Shown here: positions 3,335-48,340 of the stretch, piece by piece
Layout of the letters: each line of letters opens with the position of its first letter
Numbering within the stretch: position 1 is the first letter of the stretch
Assembly (NCBI RefSeq): GCF_013122565.1
Contig: NZ_CP053258.1
Direction: 5' to 3' (one strand)
DNA length: 64,000 nucleotides
Source: Escherichia coli
GTDB lineage: Bacteria > Pseudomonadota > Gammaproteobacteria > Enterobacterales > Enterobacteriaceae
Notes under the pieces: generated by a model
Databases searched by the model: none
The model's input: only the letters and a program-made list of their open reading frames with translations
What the model was told of the DNA's origin: nothing
Made by a program: the position numbers and the translations under genes

Positions 3335-6011
3335 CGAACCCTTACGTCCCGACCCCGACCGTCTGCTGGAACAAACTGCCGCGCCGCATCGGGGGAAGCT
3401 GAAAGTTTTCTTCGGTGCCTGTGCAGGCGTCGGGAAGACCTGGGCGATGCTGGCAGAAGCCCAGCGACTGCGGGCGCAAGGGCTGGATATTGTGGTTGGC
3501 GTGGTAGAAACCCACGGGCGAAAAGATACCGCCGCCATGCTGGAAGGGCTGGCTGTTCTGCCGTTAAAACGCCAGGCGTACCGTGGGCGGCATATCAGCG
3601 AGTTTGATCTCGATGCCGCCCTCGCCCGCCGCCCGGCGCTGATCTTAATGGACGAACTGGCGCACAGTAATGCGCCAGGTTCTCGTCATCCTAAACGCTG
3701 GCAGGATATCGAAGAACTGCTGGAAGCTGGCATTGATGTTTTCACAACCGTCAACGTTCAGCATCTGGAAAGTCTGAATGATGTGGTCAGCGGCGTCACC
3801 GGAATTCAGGTACGGGAAACCGTGCCCGATCCTTTTTTCGATGCCGCCGACGACGTGGTTCTGGTGGACTTGCCCCCGGACGATCTGCGCCAGCGGCTGA
3901 AAGAAGGCAAAGTCTATATTGCCGGGCAGGCGGAGCGCGCCATTGAACATTTTTTCCGCAAAGGCAATCTGATCGCCCTGCGCGAACTGGCACTGCGCCG
4001 TACTGCTGATCGCGTTGATGAGCAAATGCGCGCCTGGCGGGGGCATCCTGGCGAAGAGAAAGTGTGGCACACGCGCGACGCGATCCTTTTATGCATCGGC
4101 CATAACACCGGCAGCGAAAAACTGGTCCGCGCAGCGGCGCGGCTGGCGTCACGGCTGGGTAGCGTCTGGCACGCGGTGTATGTTGAAACCCCTGCCCTGC
4201 ATCGCTTACCGGAGAAAAAACGTCGGGCAATTCTCAGCGCCTTACGTCTGGCGCAGGAGCTGGGCGCGGAGACGGCAACACTTTCTGATCCAGCGGAAGA
4301 GAAAGCGGTAGTGCGTTATGCCCGTGAACATAATCTCGGCAAGATTATTCTCGGTCGCCCAGCCTCGCGCCGCTGGTGGCGTCGGGAAACGTTTGCTGAC
4401 CGACTGGCGCGCATCGCTCCCGATCTCGATCAGGTGCTGGTCGCGCTTGATGAACCACCCGTCCGCACGATTAACAACGCGCCGGATAGCCGCTCTTTTA
4501 AAGACAAGTGGCGGGTACAGATTCAGGGATGCGTGGTTGCCGCCGCGTTATGCGCCGTTATCACCTTAATTGCTATGCAGTGGCTGATGGCGTTTGATGC
4601 CGCCAACCTGGTGATGCTGTATCTGCTTGGCGTGGTGGTGGTCGCGCTATTTTATGGACGCTGGCCTTCGGTGGTTGCTACCGTCATTAATGTGGTGAGT
4701 TTCGATCTCTTTTTTATCGCCCCACGCGGCACGCTCGCCGTCTCTGATGTGCAATATCTGCTGACCTTCGCGGTGATGTTAACCGTCGGGCTGGTGATCG
4801 GGAACCTTACTGCGGGTGTGCGTTATCAGGCGCGGGTAGCCCGTTACCGCGAGCAACGCACACGGCACTTATATGAAATGTCGAAAGCTCTGGCGGTGGG
4901 CCGCAGTTCGCAGGACATCGCCGCCACCAGCGAACAATTTATTGCCTCCACGTTTCATGCCCGCAGTCAGGTGTTGTTGCCCGATGACAACGGTAAATTG
5001 CAGCCGTTAACACATCCGCAAGGAATGACGCCGTGGGACGATGCCATCGCGCAGTGGAGTTTTGATAAAGGCCTGCCTGCGGGTGCGGGCACCGACACGT
5101 TACCCGGCGTGCCGTACCAGATTTTGCCGTTAAAAAGCGGTGAGAAAACCTACGGGCTGGTGGTGGTGGAACCGGGGAATCTGCGTCAGTTGATGATCCC
5201 GGAACAGCAGCGCCTGCTGGAGACGTTTACGCTGTTAGTCGCCAATGCGCTTGAGCGGCTGACGCTGACCGCCAGCGAAGAACAGGCGCGGATGGCAAGC
5301 GAACGGGAACAGATCCGCAACGCCCTGCTGGCGGCGCTTTCGCATGATTTACGCACTCCGCTTACGGTGCTGTTCGGTCAGGCAGAAATCTTAACGCTCG
5401 ATCTGGCAAGCGAAGGATCGCCCCACGCCCGCCAGGCCAGCGAGATCCGTCAGCACGTGCTGAACACTACCCGACTGGTGAATAATCTACTGGATATGGC
5501 GCGAATTCAGTCCGGCGGCTTTAATTTGAAGAAAGAGTGGTTAACGCTGGAAGAAGTAGTCGGCAGCGCGCTGCAAATGCTGGAACCGGGTTTATCGTCG
5601 CCCATCAATCTTTCTCTGCCAGAACCGCTGACCTTAATCCACGTTGACGGGCCACTCTTTGAACGGGTGCTGATTAATCTGCTGGAGAACGCGGTGAAAT
5701 ACGCGGGTGCGCAGGCCGAAATTGGGATCGATGCCCACGTTGAGGGCGAAAATCTACAACTGGATGTCTGGGATAACGGCCCCGGTCTTCCGCCAGGCCA
5801 GGAGCAGACGATATTTGATAAGTTTGCTCGCGGGAATAAAGAGTCGGCAGTACCGGGGGTAGGGCTTGGGCTGGCAATTTGTCGGGCGATAGTGGATGTA
5901 CACGGGGGCACTATTACCGCGTTCAACCGACCGGAAGGTGGTGCCTGTTTTCGTGTTACACTTCCCCAGCAAACCGCTCCTGAACTTGAAGACTTTCATG
6001 AGGATATGTGA
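3327..6011 (+). CDS. kdpD: Sensor histidine kinase KdpD
   Basis: 894 aa from ATG 3327 ([16 protein letters not shown]...); N-terminal KdpD domain with P-loop GACAGVGKT, four TM helices, C-terminal HisKA/HATPase; overlaps kdpC end. Confidence 0.93.
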
Positions 6012-13207: not shown

Positions 13208-13223
13208 GCCAGCCTGAATGAGA

Positions 13224-13252
13224 AAAAGCCAACCTGCAGGTTGGCTTTTTTA
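13224..13252. terminator. Bidirectional rho-independent terminator between fur and chiQ
   Basis: Perfect hairpin agccaacc-tgca-ggttggct flanked by an A-run and a T-run. Confidence 0.85.
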
Positions 13253-32773: not shown

Positions 32774-33652
32774 ATGAGCGACGACAATTCACACAGTAGT
32801 GACACGATAAGCAACAAGAAGGGATTTTTCTCCCTGTTACTCAGCCAACTTTTCCACGGTGAACCGAAAAACCGTGACGAACTGCTGGCGCTGATCCGTG
32901 ATTCCGGGCAGAACGACCTTATCGACGAAGATACGCGCGATATGCTCGAAGGGGTGATGGACATCGCAGACCAACGCGTCCGCGACATCATGATCCCCCG
33001 CTCCCAGATGATTACCCTGAAACGCAACCAGACGCTGGACGAATGCCTTGATGTCATCATCGAGTCCGCCCACTCACGTTTCCCGGTGATTAGCGAAGAC
33101 AAAGATCACATTGAAGGGATTCTGATGGCGAAAGACTTGCTGCCGTTTATGCGCAGCGATGCTGAAGCCTTCAGCATGGACAAAGTGTTACGTCAGGCGG
33201 TTGTCGTTCCTGAAAGTAAGCGCGTAGACCGGATGCTGAAAGAGTTTCGCTCTCAGCGTTACCACATGGCGATCGTTATTGACGAATTCGGTGGGGTTTC
33301 CGGTCTGGTGACCATTGAAGACATCCTGGAACTGATTGTTGGTGAGATTGAAGACGAATATGACGAAGAAGATGATATCGACTTCCGTCAGCTGAGTCGT
33401 CATACCTGGACCGTGCGCGCACTGGCTTCCATTGAAGACTTCAACGAAGCGTTCGGCACCCACTTTAGCGATGAAGAAGTCGACACCATCGGTGGTCTGG
33501 TGATGCAGGCATTTGGGCATCTTCCGGCGCGTGGCGAAACCATCGACATCGACGGTTACCAGTTCAAAGTGGCGATGGCCGATAGTCGGCGTATTATTCA
33601 GGTTCATGTCAAAATCCCGGATGACTCACCCCAGCCGAAGCTGGATGAATAA
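32774..33652 (+). CDS. corC: Magnesium/cobalt efflux-associated protein CorC (CBS pair and CorC_HlyC domains)
   Basis: 292 aa, full-length. Confidence 0.92.
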
Positions 33653-44515: not shown

Positions 44516-45943
44516 TCACCCGAACAGATGGAGTATTTTCCCTATCAAACCAGCAAAGATAAAAATATAGAAAATAATTTTGATGACGCCCAGACAGCCC
44601 GGCCCACCATCATCAACGGGCATTGGTTGCGGTTGCGGCTCCGGTTCGACGGTTTGCTTCTCGGCAAAATTCGCCGACTGAATTAATAACCGTCGAATAA
44701 TTAATGCCTCCAGAGGACAACGATCTTCTGCATCAAGGCGGCTCACAATCGGCATTAATGATTCTTCTGTAGGTTGGCTGGCCTGCACTAATTGTTTGGC
44801 AACTAGATATAATGGCCATAAGGTATGTTCTGTATCACGCGTGAGTGAGATCCGCGGCTTACGTCCTTTGTGCAAAACCATCTCGACCAGTGAACGCCCC
44901 AGAGCAGAGAGTTTTTCATCGCTGAGTATTTCGTATAAATGAAAACGCGTACGGGCGCTGTCGCCGGGGACATAAAGTAGCGGTTTTCCCTGGTCGTTAA
45001 CCAGTTCACGAGCTTCAATCATCATCACCACTAACGGGTAATAATCGACCCGATGCTGACGACACCATTGCAACATTAAAGCATCCGCCTGGGTGGAGGG
45101 ATACTCGCGCCAGTAGTCACAAAGTTCTGCCAGCAGGCTTTCGCCTTCTCCACAATAGACGCGTTGCGCGTATTCATAATAACGCGCATCTTCATTATCA
45201 GGTTCAGCTTCCCGCCACGACCGGGCGTAATCCAGGAGTTCGGGGATATCCAGGCGACCTGCGCTATACCAGCGGAGTAAATTTCTGTGCAGTTTTGCAT
45301 CATCGGGGATAATCACTGCGCGATGTTGCGATAAATACAATGTCAGCCATTCTGGATGCGATGACCAAATCCGGGCGAACATTTGGTAAAAATCGATGGT
45401 GTCATTTTGCACGGCAACGGGCAGATGCAGAATGGTCTGGAAGTTAAAAACATTTCCCTTCGCAATGGCATATAAAAAGGATTCCAGTTCTTCTTCGTCT
45501 ATTTCCCCGGTGTTTTCCTCCTGCAACCACCGCAATCTTTCTGCTAATAACACCACACACTCGAAGGATAAATGGGCAGTGTTCATGGCGATTGTGCACA
45601 GCGACCAGCGTAATTCATCAATCTCTTCCATTGAGCAATAATTTAATTGCTGAATGAATCGCTGCCAGGCGGAAGGCAGAAAACGTTCGCTATCAGAAGC
45701 AAGTAAAGCACGAAAGGCGAGCAGAATTTCATGTTCTGCTACCTCATATTCTTCTGGTTGCCAAACAGATTTAGCAGGCGACTGCGCAATCCGTAGCGCC
45801 TCCTCATACGCCTGACGAAGTTGTTTAAAACCCTGCGGATCGGTTTCTGGATGAAAGGACGGTAACAGCGCCAGATAAGCGCGGCGGATAATATCGACGT
45901 CAGTCGTTTCCTCTATGTTGAGGATCTTCCAGCAATTTTTCAT
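44516..45943 (-). CDS. djlB: J-domain-like co-chaperone DjlB (YbeS), C-terminal membrane anchor
   Basis: 475 aa; paralog of djlC. Confidence 0.88.
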
Positions 45944-46647
45944 AGGTCGCTCATATCCTTAAGCGTTTCAGGGCATGCAGAATAGTAAGCCAATGGTTGC
46001 CAGGACAAGGTAGGGTAATACGCATCATCACTGGCAAATAATTGATAAAACATATCATTGCCGGAATCGTCGTATTCTTTACGCGCTAAGAATTCACGTA
46101 ATAACTGAAGATTATCATCTTCGGGAGACTGCCAATATTGCCGACCAAAGGTATAACCGGCAAAGTATTGCTGCCAGTTACTATAATAACGTAGCGCCCG
46201 TAGATGAATGCGCGACTGGATCCATAGACTTTCTTCTTCGCTCAACCAGTTATTAAGTACGCCCATTCGGCTTAAAAAACCCATCCGGACATAATCCCAG
46301 GCTTTGATTCCCCCTTCGCCACAGCATTCGGCGGTGCTGGCGACAAATTGCGCATAAGCCTGACCTTGCTCATTTAGTTCAGCAAGATAGTCACGCCATT
46401 CACACGGAGAATAACGAAACCAGCGGTGATAAAACCCTGCCAACCGAGCGGCATGACCGTTATCGATCATTCGGTGAATTGTGCGCAGCAGGTCATCACG
46501 GTCATCAATTCCCCATGAGGAAGAAAGGTCAAAAAAGCATGTACCTAAATACATTTTGGGAGATGAATGCGAAGGTAAACAGCATTCATTGCGTATTTCC
46601 ATCGGAGTGGAAAGTGCAAACAATATTTTTTGCGACCCCATGTCCAT
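45940..46647 (-). CDS. ybeR: DUF1266-family protein YbeR
   Basis: 235 aa; 4-bp overlap with djlB start; paralog of ybeU. Confidence 0.88.
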
Positions 46648-46662
46648 ATAATTTATCCTTAA

Positions 46663-46681
46663 ACATTCATTTAATGAATGT
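46663..46681. promoter_or_regulatory. 19-bp perfect palindrome (acattcatt-t-aatgaatgt) just upstream of the ybeR RBS; candidate operator
   Basis: 9-bp inverted arms with 1-bp spacer, 16 bp upstream of the ybeR start codon in the divergent ybeR/ybeQ control region. Confidence 0.5.
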
Positions 46682-46810
46682 AAACTACATTTCGAGACTC
46701 AGTTATTTATACTTTTCTGACGCAACATAATACGCATAAAATAAGGCTTACGCAAAAATGGAACACATAAAAATATAATATGTTTTATCTACAACCATAA
46801 GGAAATGATA

Positions 46811-47788
46811 ATGATTTTTACGTCAAGTTGCTGCGATAATTTATCAATAGATGAGATTATCGAACGTGCTGAAAAAGGCGATTGCGAGGCTCAATATATT
46901 GTTGGGTTTTATTATAATCGCGATAGCGCAATTGACTCTCCGGACGACGAAAAGGCCTTTTACTGGCTGAAGCTGGCCGCTGAGCAAGGTCATTGTGAAG
47001 CACAATATTCCTTAGGGCAAAAGTATACCGAGGATAAAAGCCGTCATAAAGATAATGAGCAAGCCATCTTTTGGCTGAAAAAAGCTGCCCTACAAGGCCA
47101 TACTTTCGCTTCCAACGCCCTTGGCTGGATACTGGATCGTGGAGAAGACCCCAACTATAAAGAAGCGGTTGCCTGGTATCAGATAGCCGCGGAGAGCGGA
47201 ATGTCTTATGCGCAAAATAATCTTGGGTGGATGTACAGAAATGGCAACGGAGTCGCACAAGACTATACGCTGGCATTTTTCTGGTACAAACAAGCTGCAT
47301 TACAAGGCCATAGTGACGCGCAAAACAATCTGGCCGATCTTTATGAAGACGGAAAAGGCGTTGCTCAAAACGAGACACTCGCCGCATTCTGGTATTTGAA
47401 AAGCGCACAGCAGGGTAATCGGCATGCTCAGTTTCAAATTGCATGGGATTATAACGCTGGCGAAGGGGTGGACCAGGACTATAAGCAAGCGATGTACTGG
47501 TATCTGAAGGCTGCCGCTCAGGGGAGCGTCGGCGCTTACGTCAACATCGGTTATATGTATAAACACGGACAAGGCGTTGAGAAAGATTATCAGGCCGCCT
47601 TTGAATGGTTTACGAAAGCCGCTGAATGCAATGACGCCACAGCCTGGTATAACCTGGCCATTATGTATCACTACGGAGAAGGAAGACCTGTCGATCTCCG
47701 ACAGGCTCTCGACCTGTATCGTAAAGTTCAGTCATCCGGAACCAGAGATGTCAGTCAAGAAATTCGTGAGATTGAAGATTTACTGTAG
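46811..47788 (+). CDS. ybeQ: Sel1-repeat protein YbeQ
   Basis: 325 aa from ATG 46811 (better RBS spacing than 46805); tandem Sel1 repeats. Confidence 0.85.
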   Translation: MIFTSSCCDNLSIDEIIERAEKGDCEAQYIVGFYYNRDSAIDSPDDEKAFYWLKLAAEQGHCEAQYSLGQKYTEDKSRHKDNEQAIFWLKKAALQGHTFASNALGWILDRGEDPNYKEAVAWYQIAAESGMSYAQNNLGWMYRNGNGVAQDYTLAFFWYKQAALQGHSDAQNNLADLYEDGKGVAQNETLAAFWYLKSAQQGNRHAQFQIAWDYNAGEGVDQDYKQAMYWYLKAAAQGSVGAYVNIGYMYKHGQGVEKDYQAAFEWFTKAAECNDATAWYNLAIMYHYGEGRPVDLRQALDLYRKVQSSGTRDVSQEIREIEDLL

Positions 47789-47857: not shown

Positions 47858-48340
47858 TTACGGCTCAAACGGGCGTCTCTGGAACTGATCATGACCACAT
47901 TTCGGGCATAGCGTCAGCACTTCCGGTGTGTAGATCGGGAGATGGAAGTGACATTTCTCGCAGACCAGATTCCCCAGCCCTACCACTTCTCCGCTGTGAT
48001 AAACCCCATGATGATTGAGGTCCTGGAAAACTTCGCGCCATTCAAGCTGCGTTTTATCGGTGATGTCTGCCAGCTCCTGCCATAAGCTTTCTTTAATCAC
48101 CCGCATAAAGACGCTGTCAGATTCTTCTTTCAGGCTCTCTTCATAGCTCATGGCGAACTCTTCCAGGTCACGTCTGACAGCTCGCGTCAGCTCATCGACC
48201 TCGGTTCGCGTTAACTCCCCTGTTTTTATTACGCGCTCGCGCGCCTGTTCCACCAGTGCGTCGATATCACGTTCGCCATTGCGCAGACGTTCGCTCAGTG
48301 ACGCGACCAGTTCACGGTAATATTGAGCAACCTTGTTCAT
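47858..48340 (-). CDS. ybeL: Zinc-ribbon protein YbeL (DUF1451)
   Basis: 160 aa; C-terminal CxxC...CxxC. Confidence 0.88.
   Translation of the reverse strand: MNKVAQYYRELVASLSERLRNGERDIDALVEQARERVIKTGELTRTEVDELTRAVRRDLEEFAMSYEESLKEESDSVFMRVIKESLWQELADITDKTQLEWREVFQDLNHHGVYHSGEVVGLGNLVCEKCHFHLPIYTPEVLTLCPKCGHDQFQRRPFEP

Follow-up and report, generated by a model that had tools for sequence, protein, structure and literature searches.

Genetic context of the ybeQ-ybeR spacer

The stretch of Escherichia coli DNA analyzed here (64,000 nucleotides, referred to throughout as the window) contains the divergent genes ybeQ and ybeR, which lie with their neighbors as follows (window coordinates; the sense strand of ybeR is the minus strand).

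To 44506, plus strand: ybeT (annotation)
44516-45943, minus strand: djlB (annotation)
45940-46647, minus strand: ybeR coding sequence (DUF1266, 235 aa), first gene of ybeR-djlB, with the A of its ATG at 46647 (annotation)
46811-47788, plus strand: ybeQ coding sequence, a Sel1-repeat protein and the divergent neighbor of ybeR (start as annotated in RefSeq)
47858-48340, minus strand: ybeL (annotation)
From 48434, plus strand: leuS (annotation)
46717-46745, plus strand: ybeQ promoter hexamers, CTGACG-17-AATAAG (Shimada 2014, PMC3946193)
46727-46755, minus strand: weak candidate ybeR promoter, TTGCGT-17-TATTAT, with 8/12 matches and below the scan threshold (own reading)

The spacer between ybeQ and ybeR (46648-46810) has a G+C content of only 26%. 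Genomic SELEX placed a peak of RpoD holoenzyme and an H-NS site in it, and no ybeR promoter was listed (PMC3946193). A promoter consensus scan of 46500-46900 returned nothing at threshold, and the supplements of a Cappable-seq study (PMC4782308) and a ROSE study (PMC10301672) list no start site for ybeR or for K-12 coordinates 6757xx-6759xx. Expression of the locus is low: in K-12 RNA-seq data, baseMean was 1.45 for ybeR, 19.5 for ybeQ and 13.7 for djlB, versus 7334 for leuS (supplement of PMC8464067), and HscC, DjlB and DjlC were under the proteomic detection limit (PMC8215388). A weak “unconventional” LexA ChIP-chip target has been reported inside the 5′ coding region of ybeR (approximately 46537-46556), where a degenerate LexA-like site reads AAATGTATTTAGGTACATGC in K-12 (PMC3542263). 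Our literature search turned up no regulator of ybeR or ybeQ, and a ChIP-exo supplement for y-TFs gave expression values only, and no binding site, for b0644/b0645. The ybeQ-ybeR module itself contains no regulator gene.

Several strains carry disrupted copies of these genes. The ybeQ gene is a pseudogene with an internal stop in EC6563, CV261, O157:H7 PV15-279 and OkiPb01679 (L002, L003, L004 and L056); in OkiPb01679 (L003), a lineage with the two-wobble form of the palindrome listed further below, ybeR is a pseudogene as well. A metagenome contig (OBRI01000216.1; L025) was also found to carry a 24-bp tandem duplication of GCGTCAGAAAAGTATAAATAAACG in the ybeQ-ybeR spacer, covering a conserved TATAAAT block that is a possible −10 element of ybeR.

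A perfect palindrome abuts the ybeR ribosome-binding site

Within the spacer, at 46663-46681, two perfect 9-bp arms flank a single central T (ACATTCATT-T-AATGAATGT; whole sequence ACATTCATTTAATGAATGT). In the window strain the arms stop at 9 bp because the next outer pair is A/A. The first-pass annotation had described a perfect 19-bp palindrome at this position, 16 nt from the ybeR ATG and directly upstream of the ribosome-binding site (RBS), in the divergent control region of ybeQ and ybeR. On re-reading, sequence and coordinates proved exact and the distances were correct, the palindrome ending 2 nt from the Shine-Dalgarno sequence (SD). The parts of the element are as follows.

46663-46681, minus strand: palindrome, sense-strand reading ACAUUCAUU-A-AAUGAAUGU (sequence)
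46663-46681, minus strand: predicted 8-bp stem, formed by arm positions 1-8 and closed by a 3-nt loop (folding)
46673-46681, minus strand: 5′ (left) arm, ACATTCATT on the sense strand, new in the genus Escherichia (ortholog and paralog comparison)
46663-46671, minus strand: 3′ (right) arm, AATGAATGT on the sense strand, homologous to (A/T)GTGAATAT of distant ybeR orthologs
46672, no strand: center base, the tip of the loop, with all four values among E. coli strains (strain comparison)
46656-46660, minus strand: ybeR SD, AAGGA, located between the hairpin (2 nt away) and the ATG (8 nt away) (sequence)

In the direction of ybeR, the hairpin is followed by UU, the SD AAGGA (46656-46660), 8 nt and the AUG (46647). 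Every candidate ybeR promoter lies upstream of the palindrome, and the center of the palindrome precedes the published start site of ybeQ by ∼80 bp. The palindrome is presumably part of the ybeR mRNA leader; it is placed inside the transcript because it lies 2 nt upstream of the SD.

Several familiar classes of element were considered for this sequence. Scanning 46500-46900 for intrinsic terminators gave no terminator-like site, and the stem of the palindrome has one or two G-C pairs. A REP/BIME-type repeat would be expected in many copies per genome, and the palindrome occupied a median of one place per genome. An E-value scan of 46400-46950 against Rfam 15 yielded chance-level matches elsewhere only, and no described RNA family. 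A −10 element (TTNAAT) inside the palindrome was rejected, since position 2 is T rather than A and position 3 is the hypervariable center. The papers and supplements that were searched made no mention of the palindrome sequence or of a protein binding it.

Abundance of palindromes relative to chance

In dinucleotide shuffles of the whole 64-kb window, 0.28 perfect 9+1+9 palindromes were expected (P of at least one = 0.23) and 2 were observed; the other, at 33159-33177, reads ATGCTGAAGCCTTCAGCAT. Shuffles of the 157-bp spacer alone gave P = 0.005 for a distance of 0-1 between the arms and P = 0.02 for a distance of 0-10. Perfect arms of at least 9 bp separated by no more than 10 bp occur at around 16 loci in the window, versus ∼3 expected; most of the others are taken to be G+C-rich terminator-like hairpins (one was inspected closely). 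A terminator-like perfect palindrome lies at 13223-13250 (AAAAAGCCAACCTGCAGGTTGGCTTTTT). Inverted repeats with 9-10-bp arms are known to be 3.4-8 times over-abundant in K-12 non-coding DNA relative to null models (PMC5941160). As a statistical outlier, then, the palindrome is weak, and its statistics alone are unremarkable; it is considered more than chance because it persists across strains and species, as described in the next section.

A motif search had been suggested in the first-pass annotation as a way of finding a regulon. Within the 64-kb window, palindrome-like sites were in no excess over chance (5 matches at three or fewer mismatches versus 3.8 expected, none of them below three mismatches), and the exact 30-mer occurred in one place per genome. 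The 7-mer CATTCAT/ATGAATG is present in five copies in the window, all in ybeR or its leader (46204-46680), and in zero copies in the remaining 63.5 kb, with ∼12 expected across the window. Two of these copies form a second inverted pair.

46563-46590, minus strand: second inverted pair of the same 7-mer, ATGAATGC-N11-GCATTCAT, at ybeR codons ∼20-29 (sequence)

E. coli conserves this second pair, which is broken in E. whittamii. It was rejected as a second operator or as an alternative pairing partner on account of its spacing (11 versus 1) and its decay in E. whittamii. A scan of viral contigs for ATTCATTNAATGAAT returned >120 single-copy matches, which by a rough estimate (14 specified bases, a collection of that size) is about chance level and therefore uninformative.

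Distribution among Escherichia strains and distant orthologs

The region 46562-46900 of the window is 100% identical to strain G3/10 and 95.6% identical to K-12. Of 5426 complete E. coli genomes, 3845 carried the spacer, the locus being absent from 29%. It is unusually diverged, with a best match of 95-99% identity in 3070 genomes and of 90-95% in 766, and two copies of it were located on plasmids. Variants of the palindrome were counted as 30-mers in complete E. coli genomes, with an exact 28-mer seed across the palindrome required. A perfect palindrome was found in 3782 of ∼3817-3845 locus-carrying E. coli genomes (at least 98%). The forms observed were as follows (sense strand for the E. 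coli forms).

K-12 form, 10-bp arms, AATATTCATT-T-AATGAATATT: 2913 genomes
K-12 arms with center G: 445 genomes
K-12 arms with center C: 343 genomes
K-12 arms with center A: 0 of 5426 complete genomes
Window form, tACATTCATT-A-AATGAATGTt: 81 genomes
Two-wobble form, GATATTTATT-T-AGTGAATATT: 24 genomes
Escherichia L007 form, gATATTCATT-G-AGTGAATGT: other Escherichia species
Escherichia L008 form, aGTATTCACT-T-AGTGAATAT: other Escherichia species
E. whittamii L009 form, ATATTCATT-T-TGTGAATAT: other Escherichia species

The palindrome persists in four other Escherichia lineages as well. Scanning genome contigs with YbeR recovered three other Escherichia species plus noise, and the distant orthologs described below were obtained through a protein homology search. 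A metagenome scan with a pattern built on the flanking sequence recovered 40 loci and no haplotypes beyond those already known. It is also worth noting that two strains labeled O157:H7 differ at the locus, TR01 (L055) having a window-type spacer and PV15-279 (L056) the center-C type, which suggests either recombination at the locus or an atypical strain label.

Distant loci with the syntenic order ybeL-ybeQ-ybeR-djlB were found in an enterobacterium (L013; YbeR 67% identity) and in Salmonella enterica (L014; 64%). Both retain the right arm only, as (A/T)GTGAATAT beside the SD, and the palindrome is absent from both; in L013 a quasi-palindrome of equal length (4-5/9) occupies its place. Upstream of the paralog ybeU, there is no comparable repeat beyond a 6-bp GTTAAT/ATTAAC pair around the SD, which agrees with the first-pass observation that no equivalent palindrome precedes that gene. 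Given that the right arm stands alone in L013 and Salmonella, and that nothing comparable is found at ybeU, we conclude that the left arm arose within the genus Escherichia. A cis-regulatory role, and with it different control of the two modules, is plausible because the element is real, lies in a control region and is missing from the ybeU leader.

Variation in the arms follows base pairing on the sense strand

Relative to K-12, the window strain carries a symmetric double change at L2/R8, from T-A to C-G. The haplotype closest to the window form is that of the E. fergusonii-like L012, which shares its upstream flank and its center base, and the two palindromes differ by exactly the L2/R8 pair; a stepwise route via a T-G intermediate is also seen, in L007. 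At L8/R2, a T-G pair became C-G in Escherichia sp. MOD1-EC7003 (L008) and T-A in E. coli. Among the four other Escherichia lineages, every one-sided change within the stem produces T-G when read on the ybeR sense strand, equivalent to a U·G wobble in RNA; C-A is never seen.

When nine haplotypes were aligned, 97.5% of cells paired on the sense strand, with 8 G·U and 0 A·C, the sole mispair being U·U at the outermost position 10; two stem pairs showed full double changes. If the opposite strand is read, or the element is treated as a DNA dyad, the 8 G·U cells would count as mismatches (A·C on the opposite strand), for a paired fraction of ∼88%. A covariation control in which columns were shuffled reached the observed value in 53 of 500 trials, which is not significant, with few independent events available. 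In an informal count of events, 5 of 6 informative one-sided events were compatible with pairing (∼1/3 expected), to which 3 of 3 improvements from U·G can be added (P ∼0.005-0.06, depending on the number of independent events).

Parsimony counts over 21 distinct spacer sequences gave 0.5-0.65 changes per site in the arms versus 0.64 in the rest of the spacer. The center base changed five times and is among the two most variable sites of the spacer. For the inner core ATTCA/TGAAT, a single change was counted in 10 sites (P ∼0.07 given site heterogeneity); with 63% of spacer sites invariant, this is not significant. The arms drift at the rate of the spacer with pairing retained, and therefore it appears to be the pairing that is preserved, and not the sequence. 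Judged by their predicted pairing on the sense strand, the changes in the palindrome are shown to be compensatory or wobble-compatible.

Predicted folding of the ybeR leader

The local stem-loop has a predicted free energy of ∼−6 kcal/mol, and the 51-nt local leader is predicted to fold at −5.9 to −9.1 kcal/mol. The leaders of the window strain, L007, L008 and L009, and a short K-12 leader, show the hairpin in their minimum-energy or centroid structures. The minimum-energy structure of a 131-nt K-12 leader is built from different pairings and lacks the hairpin, and folding z-scores for whole leaders were not significant. With the left arm shuffled, the predicted probability that the SD is unpaired fell to 0.34-0.58 for the K-12, window and CV261 haplotypes (unshuffled, 0.84-0.95). 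A smaller drop was predicted for E1V33 and MOD1 (L007 and L008; wild type 0.71-0.86), and the predicted effect on the SD was absent in L012, L003 and L009. A competing hairpin, AUUUA-AGGA-UAAAU, which carries the SD in its loop and shares bases with the right arm, is likely as read by eye from the sequence. GGA motifs are present at the SD as well as at ybeR codons 1 and 3. Folding also predicted an additional helix outside the hairpin.

46682-46690, minus strand: arm of the outer helix, AUGUAGUUU, pairing with AAAUUAUAU at 46646-46654 (predicted folding)

In this predicted structure, the SD would be enclosed in an internal loop and the start codon would be partly paired. The outer helix occurs in the window and L012 (fergusonii-like) haplotypes, for which the predicted probability that the AUG is unpaired was 0.05-0.08, versus ∼0.5 for K-12; these values point to haplotype-specific translational repression in silico.

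Operator, H-NS site, template-switch product or leader hairpin

Homodimeric repressors such as LexA, Fur and ArgR recognize dyads of ∼17-21 bp. The palindrome was originally read as an operator of this kind, and with regard to size (9-bp arms in the window, 10-bp arms in K-12, 1-bp spacer), perfect dyad symmetry over 19-21 bp, a central base that is free as in many operators, and location in a divergent control region, the palindrome resembles such a site. A homodimeric transcription factor would bind ATTCA-N5-TGAAT and would either block initiation or elongation of ybeR or act on the ybeQ promoter from about −81. The single change in the 10 sites of the inner core (against a spacer mean of 0.64 per site) would fit such a site, as would the recurrence of the 7-mer as another inverted pair within ybeR, at a distance of 80-110 bp, together with the confinement of all five window copies to ybeR and its leader. 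Binding of RNA polymerase holoenzyme and H-NS to the spacer in genomic SELEX (PMC3946193) and the weak unconventional LexA ChIP signal nearby (PMC3542263) can be counted on the same side. However, the variation argues otherwise: the outer arm positions, and with them the outer half-site, are not conserved (and invariance of the core has P ∼0.07), and symmetric double changes and strand-specific wobble changes are unexpected for a protein-DNA site. Wobble compatibility on the sense strand only is not predicted by a protein that reads double-stranded DNA. In further contrast to LexA, Fur and ArgR operators, the palindrome lies downstream of all candidate ybeR promoters, and neither a cognate protein (in the searched literature and ChIP-exo supplements) nor regulon copies (in the 64-kb window, where no similar site exceeds chance) were found for it. 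It is also confined to one place per genome, has no regulator gene in its module and is absent from the ybeR leaders of Salmonella and L013, and the second inverted pair differs from it in spacing (11 versus 1) and decays in E. whittamii. In a cursory comparison with the consensus sites of Fur, ArgR, NsrR, ArcA, TorR, CRP, LexA and RcsAB and with the T-N11-A box of LTTRs, none appeared to fit the palindrome in both sequence and spacing. The operator part of the original reading is accordingly not favored, given compensatory, strand-specific changes and a search that found no binder, and we regard an operator as unlikely.

Highly improbable, in our view, is that the symmetry is incidental and that the AATATT ends of the K-12 form, with the adjacent GATAAATT, are AT-rich high-affinity sites forming an H-NS nucleation or bending patch that helps to silence an acquired module. 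A high-affinity H-NS motif, TCGATAAATT, was reportedly described by Lang in 2007, and 8 of 10 positions of that motif are found in GGATAAATT, located beside the SD in the SD-to-ATG spacer (46648-46660, sense strand). The spacer has been flagged as H-NS bound (PMC3946193), its G+C content is 26% and the module is silent. H-NS binding, however, requires neither dyad symmetry nor paired changes, and in the window type AATATT has become AACATT/AATGTT on both sides, so that the AT tracts are weakened and the pairing is retained.

The same AT-rich, H-NS-bound spacer could instead harbor a functionless quasi-palindrome that was made perfect, and is kept so, by replication template switching, a process that copies one arm onto the other, can flip the spacer between them and requires no protein or RNA function. 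Perfect repeats with 9-10-bp arms in K-12 non-coding DNA are over-abundant and more conserved than expected, which has been credited to template-switch correction (Lavi et al. 2018, PMC5941160), and template switching can bring about compensatory changes in one step, with no need of selection, and create hairpins (Monttinen and Loytynoja 2022, PMC8794818). The ybeR palindrome is like the repeats of those two studies in its 9-10-bp perfect arms, its tiny spacer, its location in non-coding DNA, its perfection across strains and relatives, its symmetric arm changes and its highly variable or complemented spacer. Template switching would account for the difference of exactly one symmetric pair between the window type and L012 and for center states that form the complementary pairs T/A and G/C, and the L013 quasi-palindrome (4-5/9) is a plausible precursor. 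Arms evolving at the neutral rate of the spacer, in a module that is nearly silent and often decaying (ybeQ pseudogenes, locus absent from 29% of genomes), are likewise consistent with a lack of function. In contrast to such repeats, the mismatches left over in the ybeR palindrome are wobble-compatible on one strand only, whereas template switching restores Watson-Crick pairs on both strands and does not predict T-G on the sense strand alone and never C-A. These T-G mismatches persist in separate species, and therefore any template-switch correction is not fast. The changes at the center base also exceed complement flips, since T to C and T to G are needed as well. On balance, we consider a functionless repeat somewhat unlikely.

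As the best explanation, we tentatively read the palindrome as the DNA counterpart of a small AU-rich stem-loop that would form in the 5′ leader of ybeR-djlB transcripts. A leader RNA stem-loop is favored because the wobble is strand specific, two pairs are compensatory with T-G intermediates, the loop is free to vary and the spacing to the SD is fixed. Against it count the near silence of ybeR in K-12, the weakness of the hairpin, the non-significant folding z-scores and covariation control, the lack of a predicted SD effect in three haplotypes, the absence of the palindrome from Salmonella, L013 and ybeU, and the lack of an Rfam match. As modeled, the stem-loop would comprise 8-9 bp and a 3-nt loop (∼−6 kcal/mol) and would end two bases before the SD. 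It would lock up the conserved AAUGAAUAU segment, and this segment and the adjoining AU-rich bases would thereby be kept from folding onto the SD/AUG region. The hairpin would in this way set the accessibility of the RBS once the operon, which is normally silenced by H-NS, is transcribed, and it may also provide the leader with a stable 5′ structure. From these properties we infer an influence of the hairpin on translation or stability.

Stem-loops in 5′ leaders, positioned beside the RBS, set its accessibility or the stability of the mRNA, as in the ompA 5′ hairpin and in insulating hairpins upstream of the SD. The ybeR hairpin is like these in that it is small and lies directly upstream of the SD, in that compensatory and G·U changes maintain its pairing, and in its predicted effect on SD accessibility. 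Unlike ompA-type leader hairpins, it is much weaker, more AU-rich and restricted to one genus. The palindrome is a previously undescribed but ordinary kind of feature.

A more elaborate proposal, which we judge decidedly unlikely, is that the hairpin acts as a regulatory switch, peculiar to the genus, on the ybeR-djlB arm of the chaperone module of HscC, the third Hsp70. The hairpin would then compete with the SD-containing AUUUA-AGGA-UAAAU structure, some haplotypes adding the outer helix that buries the AUG, and translation of the co-chaperone operon after H-NS silencing lifts would depend on temperature or on an RNA-binding protein. The paralogous ybeU-djlC arm would be without such control.

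Implications for the HscC chaperone module

The impact of the palindrome would be local and modest whichever reading holds. If it is non-functional, it would be a clean natural case in which mutation bias keeps a palindrome perfect in thousands of genomes, and a caution against taking every perfect dyad for an operator. Should it be functional, the ybeQ-ybeR-djlB/ybeT-ybeU-djlC-hscC module, so far almost unstudied, would have its first described cis-regulatory element, and arm and compensatory mutants would offer a concrete handle on when this silent Hsp70 system is expressed.
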